Below, piece by piece: positions 43,180 to 45,222 of a DNA stretch of 64,000 nucleotides. Within the stretch, counting starts at the first letter, position 1. Each line of letters begins with the position of its first letter. Both the position numbers and the translations under genes were made by a program. The notes beneath the pieces were generated by a model. The model had not been told where the DNA came from, made no database searches, and saw only the letters and a program-made list of their open reading frames with translations. Source of the DNA: Candidatus Eiseniibacteriota bacterium (GTDB lineage Bacteria > Eisenbacteria > RBG-16-71-46 > SZUA-252); contig VBOR01000061.1 of NCBI GenBank assembly GCA_005893165.1, forward strand, positions 36,555 through 100,554. The letters run 5' to 3'.

Positions 43180-45222
43180 ATGAAGCGGGTGAAGACGGAC
43201 CGGCTTCAAGAATTGAAGGGTCTTGCTGGCAAGCAGCAGTACCTGCTCCACGACCAGATCGAGTCGTTCCTCGACGAGAGCGCCTCGGTGGAGGACATGG
43301 ACGAGGTCTACATCGCGCTCAACGACCTCAAGGTCGATGTGTTCGACAGCCACGAGGAGGCGCAGCAGAAGCTCAAGCTGAAGCGCCGCGAGGAGAAGAA
43401 GCCTCAGGAGAAGCAGCTTCTCCAGCACCCGATGCGCTACGACGACCCCGTGCGCATGTACCTGCGCGAGATGGGGCGCGTCCCGCTCCTCGACCGCGAA
43501 GGGGAGGTCGAGATCGCCAAGCGCATCAAGGCCGGCGAGCGCCAGGTCTGCACCGCTCTTTTCCGCTCCACGCCCATCATCAAGGAGCTCCTTGCCATGG
43601 GCATCAAGCTCAAGCAGAGCAAGATGCGCGTGGAGGATTTTCTCCAGATCGATTTCGGAAACTGGAATCCCGAGTACTCGCCGAAGCGCGAGCGGGCGCG
43701 GGCGCTCAAGGCCATGGAGCGCGTGCGGCAGCTCCACGTGAAGCTGGTGAAATTGCAAGAAAAGTCCGTGGCGCGGACCTCGGAGGAGAAGCGCCGGGGC
43801 CACATGGAGAAGCTTCGCCACGCGGACGAGGAGCTCCTGCGAGACCTCTACGCGCTCAATTTCAACGCGCGGCTGATCGAGCGGCTCGCGACCCGCATGA
43901 AGCAGCTTTCCCTGGATCTGCGCGAGGCCGAGCTGGAGGTCCGGGTATTCGAGCGCCGGCACGGGAGGACGACCGAGGAGTTCGTGGCGCTCCTGAAGCG
44001 CGCGCGGAAGAGCCGGAAGGACGCGAAGCACGTCGAGAAGGAGACGAAGCTCACGCTGGAGCTCCTGGCCGACTTCGAGAAGGCCCAGAAGAACTGCCGC
44101 CGCAAGGTCCGCAAGGTGGAGATCGACGGCAAGCTGACCCGCGAGCAGATCCGCGAAGTGAACACCGAGATCCGCTCCGGCGAGATCGCCCGCGACAAGG
44201 CGAAGCGCGAGATGATCGAGGCGAACGTGCGTCTCGTGATCTCGATCGCCAAGCGCTACACCAACCGCGGCCTGGAATTCCTCGACCTGATCCAGGAAGG
44301 CAATTCCGGTCTGATGCGCGCGGTCGACAAGTTCGACTACCGGAAGGGCTACAAGTTCTCGACCTACGCCACGTGGTGGATCCGTCAGGCCATCACGCGT
44401 GCCATCGCCGACCAGGCGCGCACGATCCGCGTGCCGGTGCACATGATCGAGGCGATCAACAAGGTCGTGCGCACGTCGCGGCGGCTGGTGCAGGAATTGG
44501 GACGGGAGCCCACGCCCGAGGAGGTCGCCGAGAAGCTCCAGCTGCCGGTGGACAAGATCAAGAGCGTGCTCAAGGCGGCGCAGGAGCCGATCTCGCTGGA
44601 TCGTCCCATCGGCGAGGACGACGATTCGAACCTCGGAGATTTCATCGAGGACACCAGCGTGGTCTCTCCGGCCCAGGCGGCCGCGTTCTCGATGCTCAAG
44701 GACGAGGTGAACGAGGTGCTGGAGACCCTGAGCAAGCGCGAGGCGAAGGTGATCCGGCTTCGGTTCGGTCTGACCGACGACGGATGCCCGCGGACGCTGG
44801 AAGAGGTCGGCGCCACCTTCAACGTGACGCGCGAGCGCATACGACAGATCGAAGGTGAGAGCGCCCGGCTCATAACCGGGTGGTCCTTGGTTCGAGTCCA
44901 AGTGGGCCCACTCGCCATCTCGTTGCAGACACAAGAGGGAACATCGAACTTGGGTTTCACGACGCGGGCGGTTAGCTCAGCTGGGAGAGCGCTGGTATCA
45001 CAAGCCAGAGGTCACAGGTTCAATCCCTGTACCGCCCACCATCGCCGACCCGCCGCGTCGGTTGCGGCGTCTCGGCCGGCGAGGTACGGAGAGGGCCGAA
45101 TCGGCGACCGCCGAGCCCCGGGGATACCCGCGGGGAGCGCGCTCCGGCGTGCTCCCCGTTTTTTATTGGCGGGGATGCGAGAGGGATGGCGGGCCGCAGG
45201 GAGGGGCGCGCATGCTTCCTGA
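43180..45222 (+). CDS. rpoD: RNA polymerase primary sigma factor RpoD-like ORF with an aberrant 3' end (conserved sequence stops at 44853; frame reads through tRNA-derived sequence)
   Basis: Regions 1.1-4.2 are recognisable ([71 protein letters not shown]). The canonical C-terminus AKALRKLRHPSRS... is absent. After RQIE the frame continues ([12 protein letters not shown]...) across a tRNA-Met 3' fragment and tRNA-Val to a stop at 45222. Confidence 0.7.
44854..44910 (+). other. Truncated tRNA-Met/Ile2 (CAT) 3' fragment abutting the rpoD coding sequence
   Basis: GGTGAGAGCG (D-loop/3' D-stem) - CCCGG-CTCATAA-CCGGG (anticodon CAT) - TGGTC - CTTGG-TTCGAGT-CCAAG (T-arm) - TGGGCCC-A (acceptor 3' plus discriminator). 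No 5' acceptor or D-stem partner exists upstream, and no CCA follows. Confidence 0.6.
44966..45041 (+). tRNA. tRNA-Val (CAC)
   Basis: Acceptor GGGCGGT/ACCGCCC, D-arm GCTCAGCTGGGAGAGC, anticodon loop ATCACAA, T-loop GGTTCAATCC and an encoded CCA. Confidence 0.85.

Follow-up and report, generated by a model that had tools for sequence, protein, structure and literature searches.

The stretch of DNA analysed here (the window) is 64,000 nt long, and within it an rpoD open reading frame runs on the + strand from 43180 to 45222 and encodes 680 aa, with dnaG (41238..43145) immediately upstream. The canonical rpoD sequence stops at codon 558, in the motif TRERIRQIE whose last base is 44853, and the frame then passes directly into a tRNA gene with the anticodon CAT; the sequence across this breakpoint is CAGATCGAAGGTGAGAGCGCC. 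The features of the locus are as follows:

43180..44853, + strand: rpoD codons 1-558, covering regions 1.1, 1.2, 2 and 3 and most of region 4, with the length and register of the 581-aa RpoD of the same population as far as TRERIRQIE
44854..44855, no strand: the junction, where 156 nt of all same-population contigs are absent and the G at 44854 can be assigned to either side
44854..44910, + strand: 3' remnant (56-57 nt) of the resident tRNA(CAU) gene, in situ, recognized from the intact gene of relatives
44854..45222, + strand: accidental 122-codon extension of the rpoD frame, crossing the tRNA remnant, the spacer, the tRNA-Val gene and the terminator
44966..45041, + strand: intact tRNA-Val(CAC), the second of the tRNA pair downstream of rpoD, called by ARAGORN
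45130..45169, + strand: terminator-like hairpin and T-run after tRNA-Val, found by a scan at 5919-5948 of the population contig L092 and identical in sequence in the window
45212..45928, + strand: gene of a CT398-like zinc-ribbon protein (238 aa), the next gene in all relatives

The ORF has the domains and the context of a primary (group 1) sigma-70 factor: the Pfam models Sigma70_r1_1, r1_2, r2 and r3 all score above their cut-offs, so that regions 1.1, 1.2, 2 and 3 are present, and the gene stands in a dnaG-rpoD arrangement. Its identity with a 580-aa RpoD of Candidatus Eisenbacteria, the group of its best named relatives, is 93%, and its best match among GTDB species representatives is 95% at the protein level. 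The Sigma70_r4 model, however, aligns only over profile positions 1-42 of 50 with 55 bits, compared with positions 1-50 and 71.8 bits for the intact allele. Hence a complete region 4.2 helix-turn-helix with its ...RQIEAKALRKLRHP... C-terminus is not found in the window, and the AKALRKLRHP tail is absent. As is established for sigma-70, the residues lost here finish the region 4.2 helix and bear the basic activator-contact patch, and the primary sigma factor is essential. The 122-codon extension stays open because stop codons are rare in high-GC DNA. Moreover, coverage of the 680-aa query is at most 83% among the best 120 homologues listed, so that not one of them reaches into the 122-residue tail, and an exact-protein look-up of the fusion protein returned no record anywhere in the collection. 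A sequence-only reading of the window had described an rpoD that is intact to TRERIRQIE and then switches at 44854-44910 into the 3' 57 nt of a tRNA(CAT), a missing region 4.2 C-terminus, and a frame continuing through an intact tRNA-Val to 45222; all of this is borne out by the sequence, by the ARAGORN call and by the truncated Sigma70_r4 alignment.

Positions 44854-44910 are identical at every base to the 3' 57 nt of a complete 74-nt tRNA(CAT) gene that lies at the same place in relatives, and they contain part of the D-loop, the 3' strand of the D-stem, the anticodon arm CCCGG-CTCATAA-CCGGG, the T arm and the 3' strand of the acceptor stem. By this comparison the segment is the resident tRNA gene minus its 5' end, and the 5' portion that had been reported missing amounts to the first 18 nt of the intact gene. 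The lack of an encoded CCA had been listed as a further anomaly; there is indeed none in the remnant, but the intact tRNA(CAT) of relatives has none either, and by the same comparison its absence is normal at this locus. No tRNA was called by ARAGORN at 44833-44910. The Rfam tRNA model scored 32.8 bits there against a gathering score of 29, which depends on 21 nt of rpoD coding sequence serving as a false 5' half, and the alignment contains a 5-nt insertion and three non-canonical pairs, of which two belong to the acceptor stem and one to the D-stem. As this result illustrates, a covariance-model threshold can be passed by a 3' tRNA fragment. A complete cloverleaf with a 7-bp acceptor stem and a D arm is not formed by the remnant, whereas the intact 74-nt gene is present in all population contigs, and the remnant as written is non-functional.

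In the intact tRNA(CAU), C4:G69, C5:G68 and a TGGTC variable loop are features in common with Escherichia coli ileX and not with metU, and the E. coli genes that match it best carry a tRNA-Ile annotation, so that from its sequence it is probably a tRNA-Ile2 of the lysidine type. The ARAGORN label for this tRNA(CAT) in relatives is Met (intact gene at 5626-5699 of L092). In E. coli K-12 the gene order is rpsU-dnaG-rpoD-mug-ileX, where ileX is tRNA-Ile(CAU); this order fits the tRNA-Ile2 identity, and the earlier remark that such a gene lies near rpoD in E. coli was correct. The locus of the present population resembles the E. coli operon in having S21, (MutS2), DnaG, a 581-aa RpoD with all Pfam regions and an ileX-like tRNA(CAU). 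It differs in that mutS2 lies between rpsU and dnaG, mug is absent and the tRNA(CAU) is paired with a tRNA-Val(CAC), while the missing last 23 rpoD codons and tRNA 5' end are a difference of the window only. Directly after the rpoD stop codon of the intact locus, a TTGACC...N17...TAGGGT motif and a GCTCGGGTCCGT block are conserved in three lineages (L092, spacer 5559-5625, and the close relatives L001 and L002), and these may be, judging from their conservation and position, the promoter region of the tRNA(CAU)-tRNA-Val pair. No site in the intact spacer passed the criteria of a consensus promoter scan, and the motif thus stays a lead only.

We collected same-population contigs by exact-protein look-ups with the DnaG and the CT398-like protein of the window, among others. 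These contigs are soil Eisenbacteria with 98.3-99.9% DNA identity to the window, come from several soil samples and comprise 'CRIT18-1' scaffolds, MEGAHIT k141 contigs and JGI contigs; the exact CT398-like protein was present on at least 23 of the contigs read, and the index places it in 48 blocks of the collection. The junction is spanned by 11 contigs from at least nine samples, and all 11 carry an extra 156 nt between window positions 44854 and 44855, so that the form seen in the window occurs in 0 of 11. Of the missing 156 nt, 71 nt belong to the rpoD 3' end with its stop codon, 67 nt to the spacer and 18 nt to the start of the 74-nt tRNA(CAU). The lost part of rpoD is 23 codons, 559-581 (AKALRKLRHPTRSRRLKGYVEMM), followed by TAA. 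Apart from the 1-nt (G) ambiguity at the junction, the flanks of the gap are identical to the population contigs, and the gene order on both sides is unchanged.

Relatives outside the population agree with this picture. In the close relatives L001 and L002, MutS2, DnaG, RpoD, a spacer, a complete tRNA(CAT), tRNA-Val(CAC), the CT398-like gene and two ABC transporters follow each other in the gene order of the window, and their RpoD proteins are 580-582 aa long and end in ...RQIEAKALRKLRHPTRSRRLKGYVEMM and a stop. We checked 82 related loci, and in every one of the 78 Eisenbacteria loci that extend to the end of rpoD the RQIE is followed by the canonical tail of 22-24 aa and a stop; a tRNA(CAT) lies within 900 nt downstream in 57 of the 75 loci with enough downstream sequence. 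The alignment with the rpoD C-termini of relatives that the sequence-only reading had proposed thus finds the canonical tail throughout. We assign the defect in region 4.2 to the assembly because the region is complete in 11/11 same-population contigs and 78/78 relatives, and on this comparison the incomplete region 4.2 would be a property of the assembly, not of the organism. An exact-pattern scan of JGI metagenome contigs for the 44854 junction gave 0 hits, and the same population is present in intact form among the JGI contigs.

Several contigs that carry an Eisenbacteria-type rpoD locus belong to MAGs with other labels. Among GTDB loci, the contigs L007, L008 and L019-L021 are 80-95% identical, L031 is 74% and L048 is 58% identical; for these (L007, L008, L019, L020, L021, L031 and L048) and for P0021, P0041, P0075 and P0099, the MAG labels are Binatia, Dormiibacterota, Bacteroidota, Hyphomicrobiales, Limnocylindrales, Acidobacteriota and Saccharimonadales, and one protein of the set is labelled Nitrosocosmicus. 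This suggests that such contigs were mis-binned in the public MAGs concerned.

Three causes had been offered for the fusion, namely a deletion joining rpoD to a downstream tRNA, an integration or excision scar at a tRNA attachment site, and an assembly chimera at a tRNA repeat. The wording of the first fits the sequence, from which 156 nt are absent, while the other two find no support here. Orphan 3' tRNA fragments of ∼50–60 nt are typical of tRNA-targeted islands, and the remnant, which runs from the D-loop to the 3' end, is such an isolated 3' portion and could be read as an attR-like product of integration or of imprecise excision. The attachment sites of integrative elements, however, carry a direct repeat of the tRNA 3' segment and inserted DNA with an integrase, and at this locus neither was found: the remnant is single-copy in the 64-kb window with up to 3 mismatches allowed, there is no integrase or foreign gene on either side, and synteny with the relatives is unbroken. 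Moreover, the remnant lies exactly at the position of the resident tRNA of all relatives with identical sequence downstream, and the four further gaps described below are unrelated to tRNAs. We give an integration scar a probability close to nil. A contig that joins unrelated regions, or two organisms, at a shared tRNA sequence would also explain a tRNA at the breakpoint, as tRNA genes are conserved between genomes and often tangle assembly graphs, and contigs of other assemblies do break around this locus. Both flanks, however, come from the same locus of the same population and have 98.3-99.9% identity to single contigs that cross the site uninterrupted, and the left breakpoint lies within rpoD and not within a tRNA, which leaves no repeat shared across the junction. 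Such a chimera is hardly credible.

We then have to consider a true deletion together with what is found elsewhere in the window. Tiling the window with the near-identical population contigs revealed four further gaps that are private to it:

3385..3386, no strand: 160 nt missing within an ABC-transporter ATPase gene, shifting the frame; the sequence is present in 3/3 spanning contigs
5660..5661, no strand: 141 nt missing within the prepilin peptidase gene, with coding loss; the sequence is present in 5/5 spanning loci
20910..20911, no strand: 142 nt missing in the intergenic region upstream of dprA; extra sequence is present in 8/8 spanning loci (142 nt in six, 108 nt in two)
39034..39035, no strand: 128 nt missing, with loss of the mutS2 start codon and first codons; the contig L003 spans the site and L004 also carries the sequence

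The first 45 kb of the window thus contain five private gaps of 128-160 nt, four of which damage genes including rpoD and the tRNA, and none of the five junctions occurs in any spanning contig. The exact-pattern scan of JGI metagenome contigs gave 0 hits for the 39034 junction as well. The presence of four sibling gaps of the same size class indicates an artefact of assembly or scaffolding. We looked for a repeat or microhomology that might have driven a collapse of k-mers and rejected this explanation: the junctions show only 0-2 nt of microhomology, not enough for such a collapse but in keeping with contigs joined end to end. Loss of coverage through extreme GC content was not convincing as a cause either, the missing segments having GC fractions of 0.65-0.68 in four cases and 0.76 in one. 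Between 45 and 64 kb the window and the population are collinear. The contig L105 had suggested a sixth gap near 58455, which was rejected as 7/8 further contigs share the shorter form of the window. An indel of ∼75–85 nt at ∼58451–58458, in the intergenic region between an ECF sigma factor and a redoxin gene, is present in L105 and L111 and absent in the window and most other contigs, and from this distribution it is an ordinary strain-level indel.

Contigs of other assemblies end or are gapped at the same sites. Ends in or at the five segments were found for L004, L098, L103, L104, L107, L108 and L109. L004, a MEGAHIT contig of ERZ27315204, extends from 4 nt ahead of the left edge of the 39034 gap to ...CAGATCGAAG, exactly at the left edge of the rpoD gap, which is the last base common to the intact and the gapped version. 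The right edge of the rpoD gap is preceded by three contig starts, at a distance of 48 nt for L107 and L109 and of 79 nt for L108. The 3385 segment contains the starts of L103 and L104 and the 20910 segment that of L098, and L104 stops 11 nt short of the 20910 site. In L103 the contig to the left of an N10 scaffold gap ends at the left edge of the 5660 gap of the window. This scaffold comes from the 'CRIT18-1' assembly of SAMN08902847, one of two assemblies with the exact DnaG of the window, and it also carries the window SNP near 20889. The five segments account for ∼1.4% of the length, and a hand tally on a non-random sample of near-identical contigs placed ∼9 of ∼35 true contig ends in or at them. 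Ends of contigs from other assemblies also cluster at ∼48.75 kb (L091-L093) and at 51.0-51.1 kb (L107-L109 and L112), where the window is continuous. At 2356-2540 of L103 (CRIT18-1 SAMN08902847 scaffold_906), the ∼170 nt that follow the N10 gap match neither the window nor the population contigs, and only after this stretch does the scaffold rejoin the prepilin peptidase gene; from its lack of matches, the stretch looks like a local chimera at the same site as the 5660 gap.

A real 156-bp deletion in one strain or subpopulation, which cuts region 4.2 after RQIE, removes the spacer and destroys the tRNA(CAU), would account for the clean junction and for flanks that both match the population. 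It would also account for the end of L004 at the last base common to both versions, since a graph branch between two alleles gives such an end. The counterpart break expected on the right-hand side is absent, however: at the right-hand edges of the 39034 and 44854 gaps, L004 and L107 (both ERZ27315204) are continuous and intact with no break or merge point, so that the ERZ27315204 assembly graph had no deletion allele merging there. Furthermore, five independent losses of ∼128–160 bp would be needed within 45 kb of DNA that is otherwise ∼99.8% identical to the population, and four of the five would damage genes (rpoD with the tRNA, the mutS2 start, prepilin peptidase and the ABC ATPase). All five junctions are missing from the spanning contigs, and the 44854 and 39034 junctions from the JGI contigs scanned; the primary sigma factor is established as essential, and the window holds no second rpoD or tRNA(CAU). 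We regard a real deletion as very unlikely; if true, it would add 122 nonsense residues to the truncated sigma factor, which would be unexpected damage to an essential gene. Still a little less probable is its more specific form, a real soil Eisenbacteria subpopulation that has the 156-bp deletion, a sigma factor tail made from tRNA genes and no tRNA(CAU); such cells, if they exist, might persist alongside intact ones, their genotype being that of a defective or a cheater. The biological significance that the sequence-only reading had attached to the fusion is not upheld, given that 11 near-identical contigs carry ...RQIEAKALRKLRHP... and a stop at this locus, the very finding that this reading had named as its refutation, and that four more private gaps belong to the same size class.

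We therefore favour an assembly artefact, a scaffold gap collapsed to nothing or a run of N stripped out, over a biological feature as the origin of the rpoD-tRNA fusion, with a probability of about 0.9. In the source assembly, contigs would have ended in the conserved region 4.2 of rpoD on one side and in the conserved D-loop of the tRNA on the other, and the 156-nt piece between these ends would never have been assembled or would have been too short to keep. The contigs on either side, correctly ordered and oriented, would then have been linked with no gap left between them, either during scaffolding or gap-closing or through later removal of an N run, and the same collapse would have taken place at the four other sites in the first 45 kb. 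Very conserved sequence is prone to branching in metagenome graphs, and the break at the rpoD site may be tied to such branching at its conserved edges. As to the software step behind the collapse, both the source assembly and the preparation of the window are possible.

Metagenome-assembled genomes are known to suffer from gaps and local assembly errors, which leave genes incomplete or wrong (Chen et al. 2020, Genome Res., PMC7111523). As in those scaffolding-gap errors, the defect of the window occurs in a single assembly and in none of the independent assemblies of this population, recurs along the contig, and sits where other assemblies break or have N runs. It differs in that the window is without any N and its gaps are closed to zero length, so that each looks like a deletion.

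Two other parts of the window deserve mention. A tRNA-Sec gene (anticodon TCA) lies at 30425-30522, 10 nt downstream of a 350-aa AIRS-domain gene at 29345-30415, which probably encodes the selenophosphate synthetase SelD. Two tandem genes of N_methyl (type IV pilin-like) proteins at 2301-2700 and 2745-3144 cross-match with ∼89–93% DNA identity and are located upstream of a pilM/N/O/secretin cluster at 10.1-14.8 kb.

The window thus has at least five silently collapsed gaps on the reading that we prefer, which calls for caution with the genes read from it. The broken or fused genes at 3385, 5660, 20910, 39034 and 44854 are to be read as artefacts, which affects the ABC ATPase, the prepilin peptidase, the region upstream of dprA, the start of mutS2 and the end of rpoD with its tRNA, and a gene caller run on the window will report a false 680-aa RpoD and miss one tRNA. 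In the organism itself, to judge from the same-population contigs and relatives, the locus almost certainly consists of a 581-aa rpoD ending in ...RQIEAKALRKLRHPTRSRRLKGYVEMM and a stop, a 67-nt spacer, tRNA(CAU), tRNA-Val(CAC), a terminator and the CT398-like gene.
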